The notes: a model not told the origin generated them from the sequence alone. A DNA stretch of 56,801 bases from Candidatus Pacearchaeota archaeon (GCA_018304165.1 JAGVWS010000034.1:1-56801); one strand, 5' to 3'; shown: positions 7,954-40,356, numbered from the stretch's first letter. Made by a program: numbers and translations.

Positions 7954-8505
7954 TTATATGGTGTCTAATGGGCTTTTTATATTTACCATTTTTCCTGAAG
8001 AATGCAGGTAAGCAAGGGTTGTTTCAGGTGATTTGTGTCCTAACAGTACCTGAACTTCCGAGATGCTGTTTTTATCTTCAATTATAGATAATTCCCTTGA
8101 TTATAGTACTTTCTTTGGAATTATCTATCACGGGAATTCTGTGCAAATATGTGCTACAATTATCAGAATTCACGATAAATGTGTGGCAAAGCTATGCCTT
8201 AGGGTATGGCAATGGACATCTCTATAATTCAGTTTTGCCGCTTTAGCGGCAGTTTTAACTATTTTTTGAATTGTCCTGATATTATACTTTTTATTTCTGT
8301 TTGTCAGGAGGAGATATTCTTCTTTGCTCCTGTTTACACAAATCTGCAATAAAACTCTTAGCAGTTTTTCCGGAATAATAAATATCCTGTCCTTTCCTCC
8401 CTTTCCATTCCTCACAAACCCGTATCTTTCTTTAAAGTTTATGTTCTCGATTTTCAGGTTCACCAGTTCAGAAACCCCTAATCCTGAGGAATTAAGTTTT
8501 AATCT
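7954..8505 (-). pseudogene. Tyrosine recombinase (Xer/integrase family) remnant: 5'-truncated and split by a MITE
   Basis: Upstream piece reads ...GLGVSELVNLKIENINF...GKGGKDRIFIIP...HTLRHSFATHL. After the 93-nt insert the same frame continues IEDKNSISEVQVLLGHKSPETTLAYLH (catalytic Tyr region), with a stop at 7954. An in-frame stop at 8506-8508 removes the N-terminal core-binding domain. Confidence 0.8.
8085..8175 (+). mobile_element. MITE copy A (short form, 91 bp) flanked by TA/TA
   Basis: Shares left module and right end with copies at 19957 and 37369; TA at 8083-8084 and 8176-8177; removing the element plus one TA restores the integrase codons CAT TTA ATT GAA. Confidence 0.8.
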
Positions 8506-8648
8506 TCACAGAATTAGATTAGATTATAGAAAAATTTTAGAGTTTATAACTTCCTCAGGTTGAAATTAACGAGAGTGCTCCCATCTTCTTTTTTTTAAAA
8601 AAAAGAAGCAAAAAAAAGCGCGCGCTTCCGTTCCCTCATCCTTAAAGA

Positions 8649-19839: not shown

Positions 19840-19956
19840 ACAGTTATATTGTAAATGACACTACTATAGTATATATAAACCTTTTTGTCGTTTTGAGTAT
19901 CTCCGATATAAATTAATTCACCTATAGATTAGAAATAAGATGTATAAGTTCTATTA

Positions 19957-20088
19957 TAGATAATTCCCTTGATTATAGCACTTTCTTTGGAATTATCTAT
20001 CACGGGACTGAGAAAACCTTCGGTTGTCAAGATGCTGAAGATGTTGCATCTTGAACACACTCAAGAACTCACGTTCTTGAATTCACGA
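19957..20088 (+). mobile_element. MITE copy B (132 bp) flanked by TA/TA; carries the double-hairpin module (20026-20080)
   Basis: Near-identical to copy C except for loss of GCTACAATTATCA near the right end; TA at 19955-19956 and 20089-20090. Confidence 0.8.
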
Positions 20089-22467: not shown

Positions 22468-22541
22468 AGCCCTAGCTGGGGATCGAACCCAGGACCTCGG
22501 CCTTACCATGGCCGCGCTCTACCGGCTGTAGCTACTAGGGC
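22468..22541 (-). tRNA. tRNA-Thr (GGU)
   Basis: Acceptor GCCCTAG/CTAGGGC, anticodon stem CGGCC/GGCCG with loop ATGGTAA, T arm CTGGG-TTCGATC-CCCAG. Confidence 0.85.
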
Positions 22542-23534
22542 GATTTTATTAAGATGACGTTTATTTGAGAACCCTATTAGGTTCATCCATTTTCTTAATT
22601 GTTCAATACCATAAATTTCTATTTTATAAACTTGCCTGTTTCTAACAAAAAGAGTATATAATTGGAAATGTTTAGAGAGATAACTCTTGACGTCCTCAAA
22701 TAGGTTTTTACTGGCAGTTGTAAGGGATATTCTTGGATAAGGCGAACGGTATGATTTTCTTTTGTCAAACGTTATTCCTCCATCAGTATCAAAAATCCCT
22801 CGTAAGGTTGCTCTTATGTTTTCTTCTCCGGAATTTTTTATTTTCTCCGGAATTTTTACAGTATAAGTTTTCTTTCCTGGAGTAAATTCAAGAAACACTT
22901 TTAAAAAATAAAACAACTTGCGAGAATAAATTACAATTCTAACAGCGTTTTCTCTAGAAGAAGGTTTGTAAATATGGGGCTTTGCATCAGGAATAATACT
23001 CTTTATTATTGGTATGATCCTTTCTTTATAATAAGGCAGGTCATATCTTATATCTCCTGCAAATTCTATGTGATACAATTTATTCTTATAAACGTTAAAA
23101 CAACCGTCACCAATAAATGTGCCTGCTAATTCGCATATTTCTGGCGATAACTTTAAAGAAGAAAATGAAGATAGTAATTTTTCTATTTCTATTTTAGTAT
23201 GAATCTTTTTTAGTTTTCTACCTTCCTTAAATTTTTCAATATTTTTTAGATAAGCTGCCTTTCCGCCCTTCACTTTGCCGTGATTATCTGGCAGTTCCTC
23301 AATATTTGACAAAATTTTAGTTTTTTCAGTATCATTTAAGGAAATAATTAATTTATTAAAAAGCTCTTTTGGCATCGACCAGTAACCCTTTCTGTAATTA
23401 TCAAATGTAGATCGCGGTATGCTAAAATAAGTCCGAACACTTGCCCATGTCCCGTTCATTTTAGTTCTTACTGAATTGAAAAGAGTATTAAGAATAATGG
23501 GATTTTTAATTATGACTCTCATATTTATTATCAT
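22503..23534 (-). CDS. Double-motif LAGLIDADG homing-endonuclease-like protein with N-terminal HTH-like region
   Basis: Two LAGLIDADG motifs (LAGTFIGDGCF and LRGIFDTDGGI); the last 13 codons (ALVATAGRARPW-stop) are the 5' half of tRNA-Thr read in frame. Confidence 0.8.
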   Translation of the reverse strand: MIINMRVIIKNPIILNTLFNSVRTKMNGTWASVRTYFSIPRSTFDNYRKGYWSMPKELFNKLIISLNDTEKTKILSNIEELPDNHGKVKGGKAAYLKNIEKFKEGRKLKKIHTKIEIEKLLSSFSSLKLSPEICELAGTFIGDGCFNVYKNKLYHIEFAGDIRYDLPYYKERIIPIIKSIIPDAKPHIYKPSSRENAVRIVIYSRKLFYFLKVFLEFTPGKKTYTVKIPEKIKNSGEENIRATLRGIFDTDGGITFDKRKSYRSPYPRISLTTASKNLFEDVKSYLSKHFQLYTLFVRNRQVYKIEIYGIEQLRKWMNLIGFSNKRHLNKIALVATAGRARPW

Positions 23535-23627: not shown

Positions 23628-24122
23628 ATGGAAAAGTCTGAGAAGGACAGAAAGCTGGAAAAGTTGAAGAACGAATACTCAAAGCTCCAGGAAAAATATT
23701 CTCTGCCGAGCTTTGAGGAGCTGAATAATTATTTTGATATAGATCTCGTAGCGGGAAAGCATTTTGACAGGCTGTTGAGGGCTGTAAGGAGGAGGATGAC
23801 TGAGAAGACGAGTTCTTATCTTAGGTTCATGGAGGTGTTTTTGAATCCTGCCCAGGCGCCCCTCTTCTATATGATGCTGGCAAAGAATATGTCCGAAGAA
23901 GGAAGAAAGGCAATAAATGAAATATATTTTGAGCTTGGAAGGATTGAAATACTTCATTTAGAGGTGGAGAATACTGGTTCTGATGAAAGAGAGGCAGAAT
24001 TCATAAAGGAGATTTTTGGGTGCTGGCCAAAGATAAGGGAGCACATAGGTGTTTTAGTTGACATCTTCAAAAAGGGATGGAAAAAGAAATCTGAGCTGAA
24101 GGACAAGACTTATTTTGGGTAA
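23628..24122 (+). CDS. Hypothetical protein (164 aa)
   Basis: Clean ORF followed by a perfect 9-bp hairpin CCACTAGTC-tatt-GACTAGTGG at ~24160-24181; no family recognised. Confidence 0.5.
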   Translation: MEKSEKDRKLEKLKNEYSKLQEKYSLPSFEELNNYFDIDLVAGKHFDRLLRAVRRRMTEKTSSYLRFMEVFLNPAQAPLFYMMLAKNMSEEGRKAINEIYFELGRIEILHLEVENTGSDEREAEFIKEIFGCWPKIREHIGVLVDIFKKGWKKKSELKDKTYFG

Positions 24123-24550
24123 GAGATTCTATTTTGTGAATATATAATACTCCTTTCCACTAGTCTATTGACTAGTGGCATAACCTTTTTCTTTGTGAAT
24201 GATCATTAATCAGGGAGAGCTTGTTGCAGCTCTCTGAAAATTTGCGAATCAAACATAGCTGTAGCTTTCTCTCGCTAATAAACTTATCGGAGGATAACAT
24301 GAAAGAAAATCCAACATGCTATAGTTCAGTTGTAGGAGAAAGCTGGCATCACTTGATGATGAAAGTCAAGTATTGCTATAAAATCTTTGACATGGGAGAA
24401 GTATATAAATTCTCGCTTTTTATCCCAAATATCGCTATAAAACGAATATTTATCTCGCTTAATAGTTGTTAGTTTCAATCAGAAGTCGGCCTACAAGAAT
24501 CACACGCAAAGAGAAACTTTAATAAATTGCTATAATCTTAACTTAATATC

Positions 24551-25567
24551 ATGAAGCTTTATCAAGAAATAATCCAAAAATCTCAACCTGTTGATGTTAA
24601 ATTTGAGAAATTGAAAGCATCCCAACTTAATGAGGTTGAGATCGTTTTTCATGTTCCTACTATTCACCCAAGGGTAAAAGAAATTTCAAGTTATACATAC
24701 AAATCTTTGAAAATAGAAAATCTTCCTCAAACAGACGTATTTAACTTAACAAAAAATCATATCTTCATAATTGATGAATCAGTCAGCAAACAAAAATTTA
24801 TTCAAGAGTTCATTAAGAAACAAAAAGTAAGCCCGATTATCCTTAAATCAATTGAAGGAAAAGTAAAAACAAAACCTTTTCTTGATGATTTAATAAAATC
24901 TCACAATCTAGATAAGAAACAAAATTTAACTCTTGTCGTAATCGGAGGCGGTTTGCTTCTCAATGTTGGTGCTTATCTTGCAGAAAGAACATCAGCAAAC
25001 CTTATATATCTCCCGACAACCGCATTAGCTATGAGTGATAGTGCAGGCGGGAAAGTAAGAGTAAATTTTGTTTCAAATAATCGGGCTTACAAACATTTCT
25101 ACAAATCGTTTTATGAACCAAATGCAATGTTTCTTGATGAACGATTTTTAGAATCTCTTCCTGAAAAACAAAAAAAGATTGGTTTTGTTGAAATAATAAA
25201 GCATGGTTTGTTTCAAAGCCCAAAACTTTACAATTATCTATTAGATTCAGGAAGAGATTTGTTTGCTGACACTCAAAAAATGAAGAAAGCCATTCTCTGG
25301 GCTTCTGATTTGAAAAGAGTGTGTATTGAAATAGATGTAGAAGAAAATGAGAATGGTTCACGAAGAATTCTTCGAGGAGGACATGATTTTTCTGATAGAA
25401 TTGAGGAAGATTTAATGCTTGAAATTCCGCACGGAATTGCGGTAGCTATTGGAATCATAAAGCAATTAGAAATGGAACATGAAAAACAACTTCTTGATAA
25501 AGCTAAAAAAATGTTTGATTTGATGGATATTCCTTACACGATTGAAGAATATAGCAATTGGAAATAG
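24551..25567 (+). CDS. 3-dehydroquinate synthase-like sugar-phosphate cyclase superfamily protein
   Basis: VVIGGGLLLNVGAYLAE (GGG nucleotide loop), LPTTALAMSDSAGGKVRVN, IKHGL, GGHDFSDRIE follow the order of AroB/DHQS-like motifs. Confidence 0.7.
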   Translation: MKLYQEIIQKSQPVDVKFEKLKASQLNEVEIVFHVPTIHPRVKEISSYTYKSLKIENLPQTDVFNLTKNHIFIIDESVSKQKFIQEFIKKQKVSPIILKSIEGKVKTKPFLDDLIKSHNLDKKQNLTLVVIGGGLLLNVGAYLAERTSANLIYLPTTALAMSDSAGGKVRVNFVSNNRAYKHFYKSFYEPNAMFLDERFLESLPEKQKKIGFVEIIKHGLFQSPKLYNYLLDSGRDLFADTQKMKKAILWASDLKRVCIEIDVEENENGSRRILRGGHDFSDRIEEDLMLEIPHGIAVAIGIIKQLEMEHEKQLLDKAKKMFDLMDIPYTIEEYSNWK

Positions 25568-25862
25568 TTGCGCACTAAGAAAGAGGAACGGCCGACTTCT
25601 GACTCTGAAATTTTCCTTCGGAACGTTGTACTAAATTTTTGTCCTTCGGAGAATATAACAAGGGTTATGAGGTTACGAAGTCTTGCAGGTTTCTCCACCC
25701 AAATTTATTTTTCGAGGTCGGAATTTTGTGGGTTGCCTCAAAATTCCCTCGCTCTGAAAAATCAACTTCGTTAAATTCCGATGTTAGTTTCAATAAGCGG
25801 GCGAACTAAACAATAGTCCAAATCTGCGATTTGGGAAATTAATAGAAAACGGGCGGGCGCCT

Positions 25863-26300
25863 TTAACCCAATTCCCCGACTACAATATCATAAAGTCTTT
25901 TTGCTTGAAGATTTTCTTTCAGTCTATCAACATCTCCTCCCCTATCATAGTTGAATAATGTATCAACTGTTTCGTATGGATGTCCTGCAACTTTTGCTAT
26001 CAAATCCACGCTTCTTACTTGAATAGATAATTTAGAAATTCTACCTTTATTCATTCCGAATTGACTTGGTTCTGCAAAGAACTTAACAGAAGCTCGAATT
26101 TCTGGTTGACATGCATGTCCTCGCTCTGGTGTATAAACATCCATCCAACCATTTCCGTCTGGATACCATTCAACAGAATATCCCTCTTCTACAAATCTTA
26201 GTGCTTTTTGTTTTTTATATTGTTTCCACTGTTCTAATTCTTCTCTTGTTCCTTCACAAAAGATTCCTTCTTCACTAAACCTTTCGATTTTAGGCATCAT
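25863..26300 (-). CDS. Hypothetical protein (145 aa)
   Basis: ORF with its own GAAAGGTTTAAATAC promoter at ~26320-26335; no family recognised with confidence. Confidence 0.55.
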   Translation of the reverse strand: MMPKIERFSEEGIFCEGTREELEQWKQYKKQKALRFVEEGYSVEWYPDGNGWMDVYTPERGHACQPEIRASVKFFAEPSQFGMNKGRISKLSIQVRSVDLIAKVAGHPYETVDTLFNYDRGGDVDRLKENLQAKRLYDIVVGELG

Positions 26301-26372
26301 ACAATTAGTATATCCTACTAGTATTTAAACCTTTCGGTTATTCACTACTTATAAAAGACTACATAATAACGA

Positions 26373-26540
26373 CGCCCGCCCTAAAAAAGCTCGCCAACAA
26401 AAACTCCTTCGCAACTTCGTTGCTCGGTCACGTTGCACTCTCGTGCTTCGCACTCGGAGGATTTAACAGGCATTTTACGGCTCACTTCATTCGCACTTCG
26501 CATAAGCCGATACGTTAGGCGCAATCGGGCTACGGCGGGC
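26373..26540. other. GC-rich structured element closed by nested long-range helices (RNA or ssDNA recombination site)
   Basis: GCCCGCC 26374-26380 pairs GGCGGGC 26534-26540; GCTCG 26389-26393 pairs CGGGC 26526-26530; CCAAC 26394-26398 pairs GTT(A)GG 26514-26519; internal hairpins at 26411-26423 and 26443-26453. Confidence 0.45.
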
Positions 26541-26615
26541 TAATTTATTTAAACCTTCTTGTTTAGTAAGAGTTATGAGAATTTATTTTAATATTAATTG
26601 TTATGGGGTGATAAG

Positions 26616-27290
26616 ATGATTGACTTTAACGAGCTTATTGACAATTACCTGCAAAGGGAGGTTTTTCCGCGCAGTGTCGGAAGGTATTGGCCGAGCGAAG
26701 CTGGGGGATGCCTGAGGAAGACGTGGTTTACATTCAGGATTCCGAAAGAGGTTGAAAAGCCCCTGTCAAGAATATTTGAAATGGGGAATAGGGTTCATGA
26801 TTTAATAGCAGATGTTATACAATCAGAAAAGAACAAACATGTAAAGCTTATAGACAGGGAACTGCCTGTGAAGATCCAGAGGCCGGAATATATTGTCTCC
26901 GGAAAGATAGATGATTTAATTTTAGTGGTAGTTGATGGGACTAAGCACCTTGTTGAGGTGAAATCTGTGAAGTATCTTCCTGGAGAGCCGCGCAGTGAGC
27001 ATTTAATGCAGCTACAGTTATACATGCATTCCACTGAAGTCCATAACGGAATAATGCTCTATGTAAAGAAGGATGATTTTCAGATAAAGCAGTTTGAAGT
27101 CAATTACGACGAGAAAAGTGTCAGGGATATTCTTGCAAGGTTTGACAAACTCCATAAACATCTGGTTGAGGATAAAATTCCCGGACCCGAGGCAAAATTG
27201 ATTGAAGAAAAGAACTGGATGTGCTCCTTCTGCCCGTATGTCAAGGAGTGCGATGAAGCGGGCGGAGTTCTAAGAGATGATGATGCATAG
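26616..27290 (+). CDS. Cas4-like PD-(D/E)xK nuclease with 4-Cys cluster (stand-alone)
   Basis: N-terminal Cys (EAGGCLRKTW), IDDL...VEVKS nuclease core, QLQLY, C-terminal CSFCPYVKEC (Cx2Cx5C). ATG at 26616 preferred over the TTG at 26598. Confidence 0.8.
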   Translation: MIDFNELIDNYLQREVFPRSVGRYWPSEAGGCLRKTWFTFRIPKEVEKPLSRIFEMGNRVHDLIADVIQSEKNKHVKLIDRELPVKIQRPEYIVSGKIDDLILVVVDGTKHLVEVKSVKYLPGEPRSEHLMQLQLYMHSTEVHNGIMLYVKKDDFQIKQFEVNYDEKSVRDILARFDKLHKHLVEDKIPGPEAKLIEEKNWMCSFCPYVKECDEAGGVLRDDDA

Positions 27291-27572
27291 TCAGAAGTCA
27301 TTGAAAAAGAAAGTTAATCAGCCAGCCACACATTATTTTATTATATATACTTTCTAATATTGTAATAGCTTAGCTTTGTAAAGCTCTGACGATAAAAAAC
27401 TAATAATTTTCTGCTAATTTTTTTATTGACTACAATTACTTCATAAAGCTAGATACCTAATGTTAATTTTGGCTAATATGATAAATCTATTGTTGGTTGG
27501 ACAAATATAGTTAATTATTGATTGAAAGTTACTAAATGATATTTTGCTGTTGTTTACTCAAAATAGTATTTG

Positions 27573-27977
27573 TTAATTTTTTGCTAAAGCTCTCTTGGCT
27601 AAATCTGTTGATGCTCCGAGAGATATTAAAAAAGATAAGACATCATTATCATCAAGATTATTTGGCCTGATTATTTTAAGATGATTCTTAAACTTATTAA
27701 TTAGTCTTATATTCTGGATTATTCTGCCAAGTATTTCCGCTCTTGTTTTTAAGTCGGCTGCATTTAATTCATTAAGATCAATGATGAAAATAACATTCTT
27801 CTGCTTAGCCATCCTGCAAAGAACCTGATTTAAACCAGAGTCTCTCTCATAGAGAGAATCACGCTTATTATGAGCGTGGTCAAGAATAATTGCTTTGGTG
27901 CTTTTTCTTTCTATTAATTTTCTGTTAAAATCAGCGTTGCCGCCATGATAAATGCCTTTGCTAGGATCTTCTTTCAT
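27573..27977 (-). CDS. RNase P protein component 3 (Rpp30)-like, N-terminally short
   Basis: GGNADFNRKLIERKSTKAIILD...GLNQVLCRMAKQKNVIFIIDLNELN...RAEILGRIIQNIRLINKF...LISLG follows the C-terminal two-thirds of archaeal Rpp30 by eye. Confidence 0.5.
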   Translation of the reverse strand: MKEDPSKGIYHGGNADFNRKLIERKSTKAIILDHAHNKRDSLYERDSGLNQVLCRMAKQKNVIFIIDLNELNAADLKTRAEILGRIIQNIRLINKFKNHLKIIRPNNLDDNDVLSFLISLGASTDLAKRALAKN

Positions 27978-29434: not shown

Positions 29435-29615
29435 AATTTAAGATGATAATGCATGTTGAGTTTTGTTGATACTTTTTGTTATTGATAATTATTATCCTGA
29501 TAGTTGGCTGAATTTAAGATGATAATGCATGTTAGACATTATTGATAATTATTATCCTGATAGTTGGCTGAATTTAAAATGGTAGTGTATGTTGAGTTTC
29601 ATTAATAATTTTTGT
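29435..29615 (+). repeat. Tandem 60/76-bp repeat array (2 full + 1 degenerate unit)
   Basis: Units at 29435-29510 (76 bp), 29511-29570 (60 bp) and 29571-29615 (degenerate); core AAGATGATAATGCATGTT.GACATTATTGATAATTATTAT. Confidence 0.85.
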
Positions 29616-30006: not shown

Positions 30007-32331
30007 ATGACATTAGTAAGAAAAATGACTGCAAAAAGGGGTTCTGGAAGAAAAAAGATTATAGTAATTATCGGAATTATTTCTATAATAATTCTTGCCT
30101 TCATGCTGGCAAGACCAGGAACATCCGGGCTTGCAATATATAATCTTGGCTCTTTCGATTCATCAAACTCCTTAACAAGCTGGTCTGAAAATGAGGCTGA
30201 CGGGGACGGAGATTTTGTCGATTATTCTGTTGATACTACAGCATATTATTCTGGAGGCGGAAGTCTGAGAGGAGCGAGCGAGAGAGGAGCCGGAAGGAAC
30301 TGGAGCGGAGAGTATTTGTATAAAGCAGCGCCGATAACGACGCCCCAGCAGAACAATGTTTATATTAATTTTTACTGGAGAAAGTCATATGATAACAGCA
30401 CGCCAAATTATCATAGAATGTACATTGCAATAAAGAGGCCTGATAATTCAAAACCAATAATATGGGAAGATTCTTCACAAACATGGAATTCATGGAATCA
30501 GGTATCAATAGAAGCATCAAATTATTTTAACCAGAATGGAAATTATGAAATCCAGCTGCACTGCGATTTAGTTAATGGAAATGCTACCGGCGATTCTCGG
30601 TCTCTGTGCTGGTATGATGAGTTTACAGTAGATGTGCAGAATGATTCGCAGGGCGGGGGCGGAGGAGCAAGTCCTGTGTTCTATTCTTATATTGAAAGCC
30701 CCGCCAATAATTCAGAGTACAGCCCTTCAATAACTTATGAATTTAAAGTTTCTGTGACAAACAGCGACGGAAGCGTATGGGCTGACTTTGATAATTTAAA
30801 CAGGACAATGGCTTCATATTCGGGGAATTCTTACAGGTTTCTCATTCCAAATCTGAGCGCAGGAATTCATTCATTTTATTACTGGGGATGGAGCGCCGGA
30901 ATTCCAAAGGCAAGGAATGCGAGCGAGAAAAGATATTATGAAGTGAAAAGAGCGGGCTCTGATGCCAAGATGATAATCAATGGCGTGAGGGGAAGTGCAG
31001 AAGCCATTAATGGAAGTTTGGTTTGCCTGTCTGCAGAAGCTCCTTATTACGCTGATGGCTTAAGGACATTATATGTTAATGGAGAGATATACGGAAACAT
31101 GAGCGGGAACTTTCAGAACTGCACAATTTTTAATAATTTTGGAAACTATAATGCCTCTGCTCATTGGGATGGCGGAACTAATTACGTCGGAGATTGGGAG
31201 GGATGGCAGCTGAAAATTGTCAGGGAGCAGGAGGCTTATTTAAGGCAGAATCCAATAATAAAGATTATTTCTCCTGAAAATAAAACATATCAAAGCGGAA
31301 CTAAGGAGATTAATTTTTCTCTAAAGTCAAGCATTGAACTCAAGGAATGCAGGTATTCTCTTGACGGAAGAGAATCTGCTGTAATGAACAAGACAAACTC
31401 AACAGATTTTGCAATTGAGAAGGTTGATGTTTCAGGTAAATTAAGCCATCAGGTTTTGTTTGTGTGCAAGGACAATTTCGGCAATGTTTACAATGTGCAG
31501 CCGCTGGTAATATTTAGCATTGACAAGGAAAGTGCAGTTGCTTCTGATGAGCCAGAAGAAGAGGAGCAGGAGAAGATTATTAATGAGGGCAGGAGCTGCT
31601 TTGCTGTGTGGAAGTGCACTCAATGGTCTGATTGTTCCGGCATATCTTATGATATAGGAGATGTGATTAAAGGAAGGATCAATGTTTCCGGGGAAAGAAG
31701 GAGGGTTTGTTACGACACTCAATTGTGCGAGAGCGCTAAAATAGAAAGAGAGAGGTGCGATATATCAATACCTGTGGAAACTAAAGCCGGGGAATGGTGC
31801 GGGGAGAATTATGTGGAAGTGTATGAGAAAGACGGAGGAAAGATTGTAAGCAGGGTAAGAGAGGAGAAGAGCGGGCTGGGAGACAGCAAGAGAAGGAGAG
31901 TTGATGTGGGGTTTGTAATCAGCGAGATTGGAGATTACTGCGATTATTGCTACAATGATATTAAGGATTTTGATGAAACAGGAATTGACTGCGGAGGGCA
32001 AAATTGCCCGAGCTGCTCTAAGATAACTTCAAATGCCATACTTTCCGGAAATCATGTTAAAGCAGCTCTGACTGCGCTTGAGATTGTTTTTGCAAGCGCG
32101 ATTTTGTCTTTCCTGTTTTATTGGTTCTTTGTAAGAAGATTGATGCATGATGAAGAAGAGGATATGTCTGAAGCTGACAAAGCAGCAGAATTGGTAAAAG
32201 GCGCTTTGGCCAAGGGATATTCAAAACAGCAGGTAATTGAGCTGTTCAGGAAGAAGAACTGGTCTGATTATGAAATAGATGAGATATTCAGGAGAATAGG
32301 AGAATCAAAAAATTCTGGCTCGGAGAGTTAG
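30007..32331 (+). CDS. Large (774 aa) surface protein with N-terminal signal anchor, Cys-rich module and C-terminal TM + cytoplasmic tail
   Basis: IIVIIGIISIIILAFML N-terminal helix; Cys-rich region (CFAVWKCTQWSDCS, CDYCYNDIKDFDETGIDCGGQNCPSC); TM ALTALEIVFASAILSFLFYWFFV. Confidence 0.7.
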   Translation: MTLVRKMTAKRGSGRKKIIVIIGIISIIILAFMLARPGTSGLAIYNLGSFDSSNSLTSWSENEADGDGDFVDYSVDTTAYYSGGGSLRGASERGAGRNWSGEYLYKAAPITTPQQNNVYINFYWRKSYDNSTPNYHRMYIAIKRPDNSKPIIWEDSSQTWNSWNQVSIEASNYFNQNGNYEIQLHCDLVNGNATGDSRSLCWYDEFTVDVQNDSQGGGGGASPVFYSYIESPANNSEYSPSITYEFKVSVTNSDGSVWADFDNLNRTMASYSGNSYRFLIPNLSAGIHSFYYWGWSAGIPKARNASEKRYYEVKRAGSDAKMIINGVRGSAEAINGSLVCLSAEAPYYADGLRTLYVNGEIYGNMSGNFQNCTIFNNFGNYNASAHWDGGTNYVGDWEGWQLKIVREQEAYLRQNPIIKIISPENKTYQSGTKEINFSLKSSIELKECRYSLDGRESAVMNKTNSTDFAIEKVDVSGKLSHQVLFVCKDNFGNVYNVQPLVIFSIDKESAVASDEPEEEEQEKIINEGRSCFAVWKCTQWSDCSGISYDIGDVIKGRINVSGERRRVCYDTQLCESAKIERERCDISIPVETKAGEWCGENYVEVYEKDGGKIVSRVREEKSGLGDSKRRRVDVGFVISEIGDYCDYCYNDIKDFDETGIDCGGQNCPSCSKITSNAILSGNHVKAALTALEIVFASAILSFLFYWFFVRRLMHDEEEDMSEADKAAELVKGALAKGYSKQQVIELFRKKNWSDYEIDEIFRRIGESKNSGSES

Positions 32332-32368: not shown

Positions 32369-32514
32369 GTTAAGTTGATAATATATCGTGAATGCTTAGA
32401 AGCCATTAAAATTAAAATAACAATGCATGTTGAACATTATTGATAATTATTATTCAAACTTATTTCTAAACTTAAGTTGATGATGCATGTTGAACATTAT
32501 TGATAATTATTATT
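32369..32514 (+). repeat. Second array of the same 60-bp-period repeat family
   Basis: Perfect 32-nt duplicates ATGCATGTTGAACATTATTGATAATTATTATT at 32423-32454 and 32483-32514, plus degenerate copies at 32341-32400; same orientation as the array at 29435. Confidence 0.85.
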
Positions 32515-35150: not shown

Positions 35151-35241
35151 TGGGCCTAGGAGGAATCGAACCCCCATCTGACGGTCACTCCGTTTTTTTG
35201 AAACGCTGGAGCCGTCTATTCTGCCGTTGAAATATAGACCC
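35151..35241 (-). tRNA. tRNA-Trp (CCA) with 20-nt canonical BHB intron (35186-35205)
   Basis: Acceptor GGGTCTA/TAGGCCC, T arm GGGGG-TTCGATT-CCTCC, anticodon stem GACGG/CCGTC. The loop CUCCAG|intron|A folds as a 4-bp CUCC/GGAG helix flanked by 3-nt bulges AGC and UGA, plus a GUUU/AAAC helix. Confidence 0.85.
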
Positions 35242-37237: not shown

Positions 37238-37368
37238 CTATTTACAGATAATAATTAGAATGATTGGTCGTTTTCCGGATCAACTTTTAGAAATTCACTT
37301 CAATAACACCATCAACTTAAAATGGCTTATTATGCATTATTGGCTGTAGGGAATTATTTATTTTCTTA

Positions 37369-37513
37369 TAGATAATTCCCTTGATTATAGTACTTTCTTT
37401 GGAATTATCTATCACGGGACTGAGAAAACCTTCGGTTGTCAAGATGCTGAAGATGTTGCATCTTGAACACACTCAAGAACTCACGTTCTTGCTACAATTA
37501 TCAGAATTCACGA
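37369..37513 (+). mobile_element. MITE copy C (full form, 145 bp) flanked by TA/TA; carries the double-hairpin module (37438-37491)
   Basis: Left hairpin ATAGATAATTCC/GGAATTATCTAT, central 70-nt block, right end GCTACAATTATCAGAATTCACGA; TA at 37367-37368 and 37514-37515. Confidence 0.8.
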
Positions 37514-37542
37514 TAACTATAATCAAAATTATTTTAGTCGCG

Positions 37543-39170: not shown

Positions 39171-39372
39171 TAATGGTTAACTCAAGGTTTAAAAATCTTT
39201 TACTAAAGCGTGAGATTTTTAGACCTCTTGTCAACAATACTTAATGGTTAACTCAAAGTTTAAAAATCTTTTACTAAAGCGTGAGATTTTTAGACCTCTC
39301 GTCAACAATACTTAATGGTTAACTCAAGGTTTAGAAATTTTTTAAATTTCAAGACCTTCAATTTTTACAAAT
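39171..39372 (+). repeat. 71-bp tandem repeat (2 full units + degenerate third), each carrying a BRE/TATA-like box
   Basis: 39171-39241 and 39242-39312 differ at 2 positions; third unit degenerates into the scpA promoter; box CAAGGTTTAAAAATC in each. Confidence 0.85.
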
Positions 39373-40356
39373 ATGAAAGTTTATAAGTTTTGTTATGCTG
39401 TGGATTGCATGGAAATTATTGGAGGAGGTGTAAAAGAGGCTGGTGAATCTGCTAGAGATGCTGATAATATGAAGCCTGCTAAACTTGATATGATGGACCA
39501 CGAGCATGTTTATAATATCCTCATAGACAATGAGATAGGGTGGCAGGCAATACTTTATGAGCTGATTAATACAGAGCAGCTGGACCCCTGGAATCTGGAC
39601 CTTGCAGCCTTAGCTCAGAAATACCTTGAAAAAATAAGGGAGCTTGAGGAGGCAAATTTCTTCGTGTCCAGCAGCGTGATACTGGCAGCGTCACTTCTCT
39701 TGAGGATTAAATCAGAAATACTTCGGGAGAAGTATATAAGAAGCCTTGATGAGATTCTCTTTGGAAAGAAGGAAAAAGAGAAGGCAAGCATTGAAAGGCT
39801 TGAGATTGATGAAAGCGAGCTGCCTCTTATTTACCCGAGGAGTCCTCTGCCGAGGATGAAGAAAGTTACTTTGCAGGAATTAGTAAATGCTTTAAGCAAA
39901 GCAATAGGAACTGAAAACAGGAGGATAAAGAAAGAGATTGTGCTGAGAAGCGCCCGGAGAGAGGCAGAGATAGTCTTTCCGAGGTTCAGGATAAAGATAC
40001 AGGACAGGATAAGGCATATTTATGCTAAAATTATCTCTAAATTCAAGCAGAGAAAGGAGAGGATTCCTTACTCTGACATAGCTGTGAGCAAGGAGGAAAA
40101 GATTGCCGGATTTCTTCCAGTGCTTCACCTAGACAACCAGCAGAAGATATTTCTGGAGCAGGAGAGACACTTTGATGAGATTTATGTATGGCTCTATACG
40201 CACTATAGGAAGGAATTTCTTGAGAAGGAAAAGGAAGCGCTTAAAGAGCTGGTTGAAGAGGAAAAGAAAGAGCTGAAGGAGATGAATGATGCGGAAAAAA
40301 TCTCCAGGAAAACGGGATTTGACAATCCTTTGGCGGAATTGTTTGGGGAGATTTGA
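39373..40356 (+). CDS. scpA: Segregation and condensation protein A (kleisin)
   Basis: LDPWNLDLAALAQKYLEKIRELEEANFFVSSSVILAASLLLRIKSE is the ScpA N-terminal signature. Confidence 0.8.
   Translation: MKVYKFCYAVDCMEIIGGGVKEAGESARDADNMKPAKLDMMDHEHVYNILIDNEIGWQAILYELINTEQLDPWNLDLAALAQKYLEKIRELEEANFFVSSSVILAASLLLRIKSEILREKYIRSLDEILFGKKEKEKASIERLEIDESELPLIYPRSPLPRMKKVTLQELVNALSKAIGTENRRIKKEIVLRSARREAEIVFPRFRIKIQDRIRHIYAKIISKFKQRKERIPYSDIAVSKEEKIAGFLPVLHLDNQQKIFLEQERHFDEIYVWLYTHYRKEFLEKEKEALKELVEEEKKELKEMNDAEKISRKTGFDNPLAELFGEI

Follow-up and report, generated by a model that had tools for sequence, protein, structure and literature searches.

The DNA considered here is a 56,801-nucleotide stretch from a Candidatus Pacearchaeota archaeon (GCA_018304165.1 JAGVWS010000034.1:1-56801), referred to in its full length as the window, in which a gene cassette of ~1.1 kb that carries a gene for a 3-dehydroquinate synthase (DHQS)-like protein is self-complementary as a whole, its coding sequence included. 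We consider it probable that this cassette belongs to the end of an integron-like array of the CALIN type (a cluster of attC sites without an integrase) in a DPANN-type archaeon, and that it can fold, as single-stranded DNA, into a rod that aids its mobility. A cassette array had been proposed at this location in a sequence-only reading, which described three unrelated single-gene units, each preceded by a copy of a GTTAG..CAAT box. The coordinates and sequences given for these boxes were correct when the window was read again, and the three open reading frames (ORFs) are real, with Pfam matches to DHQ_synthase plus DHQS_C, to DUF7678 and to PDDEXK_1/Cas4. The general idea of an array holds up, but several of its details do not, and these are taken up below.

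An exact listing of inverted repeats reveals eight nested, non-crossing perfect repeats of 13-14 nt in positions 24479-25602 (Table 1). Every pair of at least 13 nt within 1.5 kb that was found in a search of the entire 56.8 kb falls in this interval, while shuffled windows contain 0-6 such pairs scattered over their whole length. The fold predicted for 24467-25672 with RNA parameters has an energy of -324 kcal/mol, as against -231 ± 7 for mononucleotide shuffles (z = -13.4); with DNA parameters both strands of the cassette give z ~ -12, and 12 other genes of the window, folded as controls, range from -3.5 to +1.3. The DHQS-like ORF is intact and holds both arms of most of the helices. The notion that the gene is one long degenerate palindrome was rejected, as the best local alignment of its halves is at the level of shuffles; the halves are not globally palindromic, and the helices are therefore discrete. 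The outermost of them involves a nine-mer, TCAGAAGTC, that had previously been taken for a second delimiting box of the array and that occurs three times in the window, with 0.55 copies expected. Its first two copies form a 13-nt perfect inverted repeat (TCAGAAGTCGGCC/GGCCGACTTCTGA), so that the motif is instead a closing stem internal to the cassette and the outermost of the nested repeats. The third copy lies within an 11-nt sequence that is unexplained (Table 1); by an estimate from base composition, ~0.08 chance occurrences of any given 11-mer are expected in the window.

The DHQS-like protein is 93% identical to its closest database protein, P0001, which is encoded on contigs from JGI and ENA whose DNA aligns with the window over 24467-25672 only (90% identity), between unrelated flanks. 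The same helices are present on these contigs, in some cases in a longer form, and their occurrence in independent JGI, ENA and NCBI assemblies led us to discard the idea of a planted sequence or an assembly artefact. Genome and metagenome scans yielded ~45 loci of the DHQS family (designated by L numbers), and at 44-94% protein identity these divide into two classes, one with many perfect repeats and the other with none at all. There are 8-9 repeats per locus in the clade of the window, 7 in L089 (including a flanking pair of 33 bp and internal ones of 17-22 bp), 5 in L090, 4 in L005 and L087, 3 in L104 and 2 in L014. Repeats are absent from L006-13, L092-96, L101-105 (a range in which L104 itself is listed with three) and L163-165; of these, L006-13 and L163-165 are non-cassette homologues, the latter situated in housekeeping neighbourhoods. 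The helical arms are thus confined to cassette-borne copies of the DHQS gene. Decayed complementarity in the non-cassette homologues, which would hint at a descent of the family from a cassette, was also looked for; their elevated pairing, of 0.37-0.59, is about the level that shared ancestry alone gives.

Between clades of cassette-borne copies it is the position of a helix, not its sequence, that is conserved. Helices occur at homologous positions and with differing sequences in L001, L083-86, L089, L090, L005, L014 and L104, and the same offsets from the start codon recur across clades with changed sequence, as for example in AGCTTTATCAAGAA / AGATTTATCAAGAAATT / GGCTTTATCAAGAA. In an alignment of seven cassette-borne genes (A5), 80% of the cells are paired, compared with 37-49% when the partner is slid, and 26 pairs have changed on both sides, compared with 9-16 in the slid controls; no shuffle matches the observed values. 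The feature extends to other cargo, since 14 of 18 cassettes of the related arrays exceed all of 100 shuffles in their content of perfect repeats. The exceptions include all of the clearly reverse-oriented ORFs, namely the DUF7678 ORF of the window, a 228-aa ORF of L084 and an 81-aa ORF of L240. Nested repeats were sought in two cassettes of class-1 integrons (dfrA1 and aadA1) and none were found.

Within the clade of 90-94% identity, paired columns vary at 7.0% and unpaired columns at 23.5%, and the proportion of third codon positions that vary is 16% in the arms and 46% outside them (p = 6e-8). Such low third-position variation points to a constraint on the nucleotides rather than on the protein, and the arms are maintained either by nucleotide-level selection or by homogenisation. 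If homogenisation were the whole cause, the helices might be a by-product without function, in which mismatch correction or template switching in folded single-stranded DNA perfects and extends complementarity that arose by chance. The low synonymous variation is also expected of such a process, which is in keeping as well with arms that are perfect, fairly uniform in length and nearly free of mismatches and with the restriction of the repeats to cassette-borne copies. We nevertheless judge it unlikely, for at least 10 helices of up to 33 bp inside a conserved enzyme gene would need many directed changes, and the positions of the helices are kept across 69-93% protein identity. Since a by-product of this kind would also need a hairpin of single-stranded DNA, it competes with the proposed benefit of the fold and not with its structure.

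The level at which the complementarity acts can be approached through its mismatches. Among 47 distinct near-perfect helices (751 bp), the ten isolated mismatches comprise four G·T, three A·C and three others; in a deeper alignment the ratio of G·T to A·C mismatches is 56 to 78, and that of isolated ones 14 to 14. Tolerance of G·U on one strand would be expected of a structure selected as RNA, and its absence on both strands favours the DNA level. Moreover, the two outer helices lie upstream of the start codon and of a putative archaeal TATA-like element (CTTTAATAAAT) and would therefore be missing from a leaderless transcript; the sequence of this element, which might be the gene's own promoter element, is kept among relatives (alignment A2). 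These observations bear on the suggestion that the rod functions in the transcript of a forward cassette or in a read-through transcript of the array, where it might control translation, stability or processing. Such a role would account for the presence of repeats in forward-ORF cassettes and their absence from three or four reverse-ORF cassettes; it can also draw on the z-score obtained with RNA parameters and on the single sense-strand G·U in the outer helix of L005. We give it little credence in view of the lack of a wobble bias, the almost purely Watson-Crick helices, the equal folding of both strands, the position of the two outer helices and the Rfam searches, in which no family was matched (scans of the spacers for tRNAs and Rfam families were negative, and Rfam on 24100-27600 gave noise-level scores only). 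We infer that the complementarity acts on single-stranded DNA.

The sites that separate the cassettes are best seen in the relatives, in which the segments between units follow a common order. A 5' extension with two mini-hairpins is succeeded by a sequence ending in TAAC (R''), a single A, an L'' arm of ~11 nt, a variable loop in which small hairpins and two motifs, CCCAAAT and ACTTC, are found, the L' arm, GAT or ATAC, GTTAnnn (R') and nCAAT, after which the outer helix of the next unit begins. In an alignment of 13 such sites (A4), AAC/GTT is invariant in all 13, with TAAC/GTTA as the usual reading, and the L''/L' stem is 93.5% paired, with changes on both sides in 10 of its 11 pairs; none of 500 shuffles reaches the observed values, and slid controls are 21-37% paired. 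An invariant AAC/GTT combined with a covarying L stem follows the logic of attC sites in integrons, and by this alignment the GTTAG..CAAT boxes are the R' cores of predicted attC-like recombination sites of ~100 nt. The consensus RYYYAAC/GTTRRRY is matched in full by GTTAGGC (the third core of the window, for which this had been pointed out earlier), GTTAAAC and GTTAAGT, and not by GTTAGTT, GTTATAT and GTTATGT. The spacers between R and L are asymmetric, with 1 nt on the 5' side and 3-4 nt on the 3' side, and the 11-bp L stem is free of bulges in 11 of the 13 sites; the asymmetry of the spacers may stand in for extrahelical bases.

A covariance model built on the relatives' sites (R1) yields 27 matches in the relatives, all in loci with nested-repeat cassettes, and zero in the loci of non-cassette homologues; the arrays contain 3-6 sites each. 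Class-1 attC sites give no score with R1, a family-specific model, and a scan of IMG/VR with a degenerate pattern returned mostly chance matches, with true sites only in L240. A further regularity links cassettes to their own sites, in that the R'' flank of the site downstream of a cassette, and not that of the adjacent upstream site, has as its reverse complement the 5' end of that cassette (GTT plus 6 nt). This own-R'' rule is what a crossover in GTT and a circular cassette predict, and complementarity over at least nine consecutive nt was found in 11 of 12 cassettes of the relatives, one call having been corrected by eye. Two further arrays may be mentioned in this connection. In L104 (4320-4529), two sites of opposite orientation abut head to head and have a common R' box, GTTATACGCAAT, so that two arrays converge. 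L014 (SBBC01000004.1, 1026-7424) has at least six of the same attC-like sites on a contig that is binned as a bacterium of the candidate phyla radiation (CPR; Candidatus Microgenomatus), together with a frameshifted DHQS-like pseudogene that retains a flanking 14-bp helix; this array points to either cross-domain sharing of the cassette system or mis-binning.

Model R1 finds two sites in the window, both on the + strand: site 1, which follows the DHQS cassette (52 bits, E 1.5e-7), and site 2, which follows the DUF7678 ORF (28 bits; E 0.005, or 0.00065 on a 7-kb stretch). Site 1 is a hybrid, since 25603-25705 corresponds to the DHQS site of L084/L085 (90%) and 25765-25794 to a different site of L084 (97%); the 3' half of site 2 resembles the L089 site. 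The 5' extension that precedes site 1 shares 90% identity with its counterpart behind the DHQS cassette in L084 and L085, and both of its mini-hairpins have undergone compensatory T>C / A>G changes in L001. Box 1, at the left edge of the DHQS cassette, had been regarded as equivalent to the other two, and here the earlier proposal has to be amended: even with filters off, the model finds no full attC-like site at this box, which is a lone R' core. A 57-aa ORF without a family match (24300-24472, +) has its TAG stop inside box 1 (GT-TAG-TT).

By window counts alone the GTTAG..CAAT box is not significant. The sequence GTTAGTTTCAAT occurs exactly at 24468 and 25783, and three of the 12 positions are different in the third copy, GTTAGGCGCAAT; with up to two mismatches allowed there are 10 matches in the window where 10.7 are expected, and a degenerate regular expression gives 4 where 2.6 are expected. 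The box is counted as real because the homology of relatives starts at it (the DNA homology to the 90%-identical cassette starts exactly at the box) and because the covariance model matches the sites. As a conserved box it therefore stands as the R' core of sites defined by relatives, although its frequency in the window is that of chance.

The order and content of the array vary, and they do so at the boxes. The DHQS cassette, at 90% DNA identity, has at least four different neighbours on other contigs; from contig to contig it is followed by DUF7678, by a CDPS-like gene, by CutA1, by an unknown 277-aa gene or by no site, and the cargo of the relatives is diverse and mostly of unknown function (MBL-fold, Fic, PGA_cap, CutA1 and CDPS-like proteins are among it). 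Eight contigs of the same population, obtained from other samples, match the window at 99.3-100% identity over lengths of up to 7.9 kb, and they end at 24458, 25671 and 26495/26514, the positions of the three boxes. To the left of 24458, L287 differs in sequence, and its box, GTTATATTCAAT, obeys the own-R'' rule; in L293 the DUF7678 cassette is replaced by another, to the left of 26375; and the 3' half of site 2 is a different one in L288, L290 and L292. The variation of individual units that had been suggested as a check on the array is thus seen among relatives and, at each box, among contigs that are 99-100% identical, and the differences in content among near-identical genomes imply that the array was turned over recently. 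On the right, in contrast, all eight same-population contigs continue with the Cas4-like gene, a 134-aa ORF, AA_kinase, DUF357 and a 774-aa protein. Given this constant synteny, and with no site following it, the Cas4-like gene is part of the flank and not a third cassette; only two cassettes remain of the three proposed, those of the DHQS-like gene and of the reversed DUF7678 ORF. The latter contains no inverted repeats of 11 nt or more and only a weak GC-rich pair (GCGGGCG, 25797-803 / CGCCCGC, 26373-79). An intron, a processing stem or a GC-rich non-coding RNA around DUF7678 (GGGCGGGCG/CGCCCGCCC pair) was considered and dropped, as Rfam gave no support and the motif lies partly in the shared site region. 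Collectively, the covariation of R''-L''-loop-L'-R' in the relatives, the own-R'' rule and the variable neighbours bear out a recombination-type cassette array with attC-like sites.

Recombination of attC sites uses folded single strands. A cassette that has become single-stranded, as this requires, would collapse into a rod, which would set the upstream R' end beside the cassette's own R'' end and thereby draw the two sites that flank it close to each other. The outer helix begins at or inside the R' box and ends beside the 5' part of the site, and in L089 R' plus 26 nt is linked directly, by the 33-bp perfect helix, to 26 nt plus R''. In an excised circle, the R''/R' and L''/L' helices of attC would carry on from the cargo rod without a break, and the result would be an almost fully paired molecule. 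Candidate benefits are a higher mobility, protection of the intermediate and insulation of attC folding in AT-rich DNA. It is known in this regard that attC x attC excision drops with cassette length, or the distance between sites, on the lagging-strand template (PMC5371416).

No recombinase lies near the array, as the sequence-only reading had stated and as domain scans of ~42 ORFs of the window confirmed. A tblastn search of the window with IntI1 of a class-1 integron, fetched as a control, gave a fragment at 7957-8496 (-) that corresponds to the C-terminal half of an enzyme of the XerA type (NF040815; 122 bits, with the cut-off at 220) and is without the integron-specific insertion and the N-terminal half. 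The XerA-type pseudogene to which it belongs (7957-8640, -) has Gly at the position of the first catalytic Arg and is interrupted by a ~100-nt insertion with stop codons; the recombinase looks dead, and the array is at best a CALIN-type cluster. The insertion is a copy of a repeat of ~100-150 nt that is present three times in the window (8082-8178, 19953-20079 and 37366-37516), has a 12-bp hairpin (ATAGATAATTCC ... GGAATTATCTAT) and looks like a small element of the miniature inverted-repeat transposable type.

A missing IntI would also be in keeping with units that are non-autonomous single-strand transposons with cargo (IS200/IS605-like or other HUH elements) arranged in tandem at a GTTA/TCAA-type target, for which a mobility that depends on hairpins and single-stranded DNA would be suitable. 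The TTA and TCAA motifs of the box are also reminiscent of the cleavage sites of IS608. The length effect is known for IS608 as well (cited in PMC5371416). This explanation appears quite improbable to us, because no TnpA or HUH Y1 gene was found among the ~42 window ORFs or the ORFs of relatives that were scanned, and because one symmetric R''-L''...L'-R' site per unit, together with the own-R'' rule, is the pattern of an integron. That the boxes resemble each other by chance or are ordinary promoter or terminator elements, with plain chromosomal neighbours as genes, would agree with the window counts and the lack of an adjacent recombinase but is hardly tenable beside the covariance model matches, the homology breakpoints at the boxes, the covariation in 13 related sites and the replacement of cassettes in near-identical contigs.

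Several observations weigh against an integron-like array with a DHQS cassette that folds in order to move. Neither an integron integrase nor attI was found, an integrase sought in the flanks of relatives, which are on short contigs, did not turn up either, and the only tyrosine recombinase of the window is the XerA-type pseudogene, 16 kb from the array. The sites depart from canonical attC in their asymmetric spacers, in having no evident extrahelical bases and in a loop with conserved CCCAAAT/ACTTC. Those of the window cannot fold properly, as L'' and L' of site 1 are not complementary and site 2 is only partly paired, and both window cassettes fail the own-R'' rule, with agreement limited to GTTA. 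Circular cassette contigs were sought by terminal overlaps and none were found, nor was a single-stranded intermediate observed. Reverse-ORF cassettes are without nested repeats (cassette 2 of the window, cassette 3 of L084, L240 and, weakly, cassette 0 of L005), which a purely DNA-level role does not predict. Finally, the gain to the cassette as a mobile unit, whether in excision and integration or in survival of the intermediate, is one that we infer.

A broader proposal, which we put forward only tentatively and with rather less confidence than the reading of the DHQS cassette itself, is that throughout this lineage of arrays, in DPANN archaea and at least one CPR-binned contig, the cassettes are shaped, as mobile units, to self-fold as single-stranded DNA. 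Coding sequences would then be constrained at synonymous and probably at some non-synonymous positions. The structural information of integrons has so far been assigned to attC only, with the cargo seen as passive; here the cargo gene appears to be under a strong nucleotide constraint to pair with itself, and only as a cassette. If this is true, it would add a layer of selection on cassette genes, acting on the mobile unit and in conflict with codon choice, and would supply a marker of a single-stranded stage of the life cycle that can be read from sequence and a computable signature for cassettes and former cassettes. It would also offer a direct experiment on how site distance and folding limit the excision of cassettes, and it might bear on the origin and persistence of cassettes in small-genome symbionts (DPANN, CPR) that exchange genes across domains.

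The window is an AT-rich (37% GC) fragment of an archaeal chromosome, and its genes have homologues in bins that are labelled as Nanoarchaeota, Woesearchaeota and Pacearchaeota. Its genes include those for ribosomal proteins L31e, S19e and S24e, an Rpb7-type subunit, CysRS, HisRS, PRPP synthetase, ScpA, Fic and several toxin-like proteins. The spacers of the array have a GC fraction of 0.40-0.50, compared with the window mean of 0.37. Short tandem repeats with a common motif, TTATTGATAATTATTAT, at 29435-29577 and 32423-32514 flank the gene for the 774-aa protein (30007-32331), and their copy number varies among the same-population contigs, as judged from split alignments; a ~71-nt unit is repeated in ~3 tandem copies at 39171-39333, just upstream of the ScpA gene (39373-40356). 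A 343-aa ORF (22468-23534, -), whose C-terminal part is a LAGLIDADG_3 domain, extends into tRNA-Thr (22468-22541) and may be a homing-endonuclease-type gene beside a tRNA cluster (Glu, Gln, Thr). The tRNA-Gly gene at 35151-35241 (-) is 91 nt long, a length that suggests an intron.

Table 1. Features of the cassette array and its surroundings (window coordinates unless a locus is named)
Feature	Coordinates	Strand	Remarks
Box 1, GTTAGTTTCAAT	24468..24479	+	R'-type core, left edge of DHQS cassette; homology of relatives begins here
Perfect inverted repeats 1-4	24479-91/25590-602; 24555-68/25491-504; 24644-57/25474-87; 24718-30/25401-13		
Perfect inverted repeats 5-8	24782-94/25258-70; 24827-40/25077-90; 24916-28/25062-74; 25152-65/25246-59		
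Two 15-nt pairs	24525-39/25545-59; 24808-22/25128-42		One mismatch each
Putative archaeal TATA-like element, CTTTAATAAAT	24515..24527	+	~30 nt before ATG, within outer helix
DHQS-like ORF, 338 aa	24551..25567	+	Pfam DHQS_C 7e-17, DHQ_synthase 8e-11; sugar-phosphate cyclase / 3-dehydroquinate synthase fold
5' extension of inter-cassette repeat	25603..25647	+	Mini-hairpins TTCCTTCGGAA (25613-25623) and TCCTTCGGA (25642-25650)
Site 1, attC-like, hybrid	25648..25794	+	R'' GAATATAAC (25651-59), L'' AGGGTTATGAG (25661-71), CCCAAAT (25698-704)
Site 1, 3' half			L' CGTTAAATTCC (25769-79), spacer GAT, R' GTTAGTT (25783-89), TCAAT
Cassette 2, DUF7678	25795..26455		ORF 25863-26300 (minus); Pfam DUF7678 1e-12
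Site 2, attC-like, short, without CCCAAAT loop	26456..26525	+	R'' GATTTAAC (26460-67), L'' GGCATTTTACGG (26469-80)
Site 2, 3' half			L' CGCATAAGCCG (26499-509), spacer ATAC, R' GTTAGGC (26514-20), GCAAT
Cas4-like PD-(D/E)XK nuclease gene	26616..27290	+	Pfam; constant right flank
AGTCAGAAGTC	27289..27299	+	11-nt inverted copy of 25594-25604; holds third TCAGAAGTC
Reverse-ORF cassettes	window 25863-26300; L084 1906-2592; L240 962-1207; L005 1592-1948		Small sample

Among known systems, an analogy is offered by viroid-like RNAs and Obelisks, which resemble the DHQS cassette in a unit of ~1.1-1.2 kb, a predicted pairing over nearly the full length and a capacity to code for protein. They are RNA replicons found in transcriptomes, whereas the cassette is chromosomal DNA without a wobble bias that carries an ordinary enzyme homologue, so that the likeness is one of analogy and not of membership. 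The 'peel and paste' mobility of IS200/IS605 likewise relies on hairpins of single-stranded DNA and has an excision that is affected by the distance between ends (PMC5371416). Those elements have two different subterminal hairpins and TnpA; in the present array each unit has a single symmetric site, and no HUH gene was found.

Parallels exist also with the Vibrio cholerae repeats (VCRs), which are attC sites of more than 100 nt with branched loops and a high similarity between sites, and whose arrays are chromosomal and contain many unknown genes, some of them reversed (PMC5371416). The host domain and the sequence of the sites differ between the two. We know of no VCR cassettes that are internally self-complementary.

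The closest match is to the CALINs, which were described along with integrons in archaea, Nanoarchaeota included, in 2022 (Ghaly et al. 2022, PMC9668308), are common in metagenome-assembled genomes, again including Nanoarchaeota, and are without IntI by definition. As in the array described here, they consist of single-gene units whose cargo is unrelated and mostly unknown, and behind each unit lies an imperfect-palindrome site with AAC...GTT cores and an inner stem that is conserved in pairing and not in sequence; the cassettes are promoter-independent, their 5' end matches their own R'', and their content varies between close genomes. The R-L spacers of CALINs are roughly symmetric and 5-8 nt long, in contrast to the 1 nt and 3-4 nt found here, and the present sites have in addition a CCCAAAT/ACTTC loop, a conserved 5' extension of ~45 nt with mini-hairpins and no evident extrahelical bases. 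The cassettes, moreover, are self-complementary, a property of gene cassettes for which our literature searches found no report. The novelty claimed for the array in the sequence-only reading is to be relocated accordingly: an archaeal array of this kind is not new in itself (PMC9668308), but a cassette that is self-complementary, which had escaped that reading, is the unusual feature.

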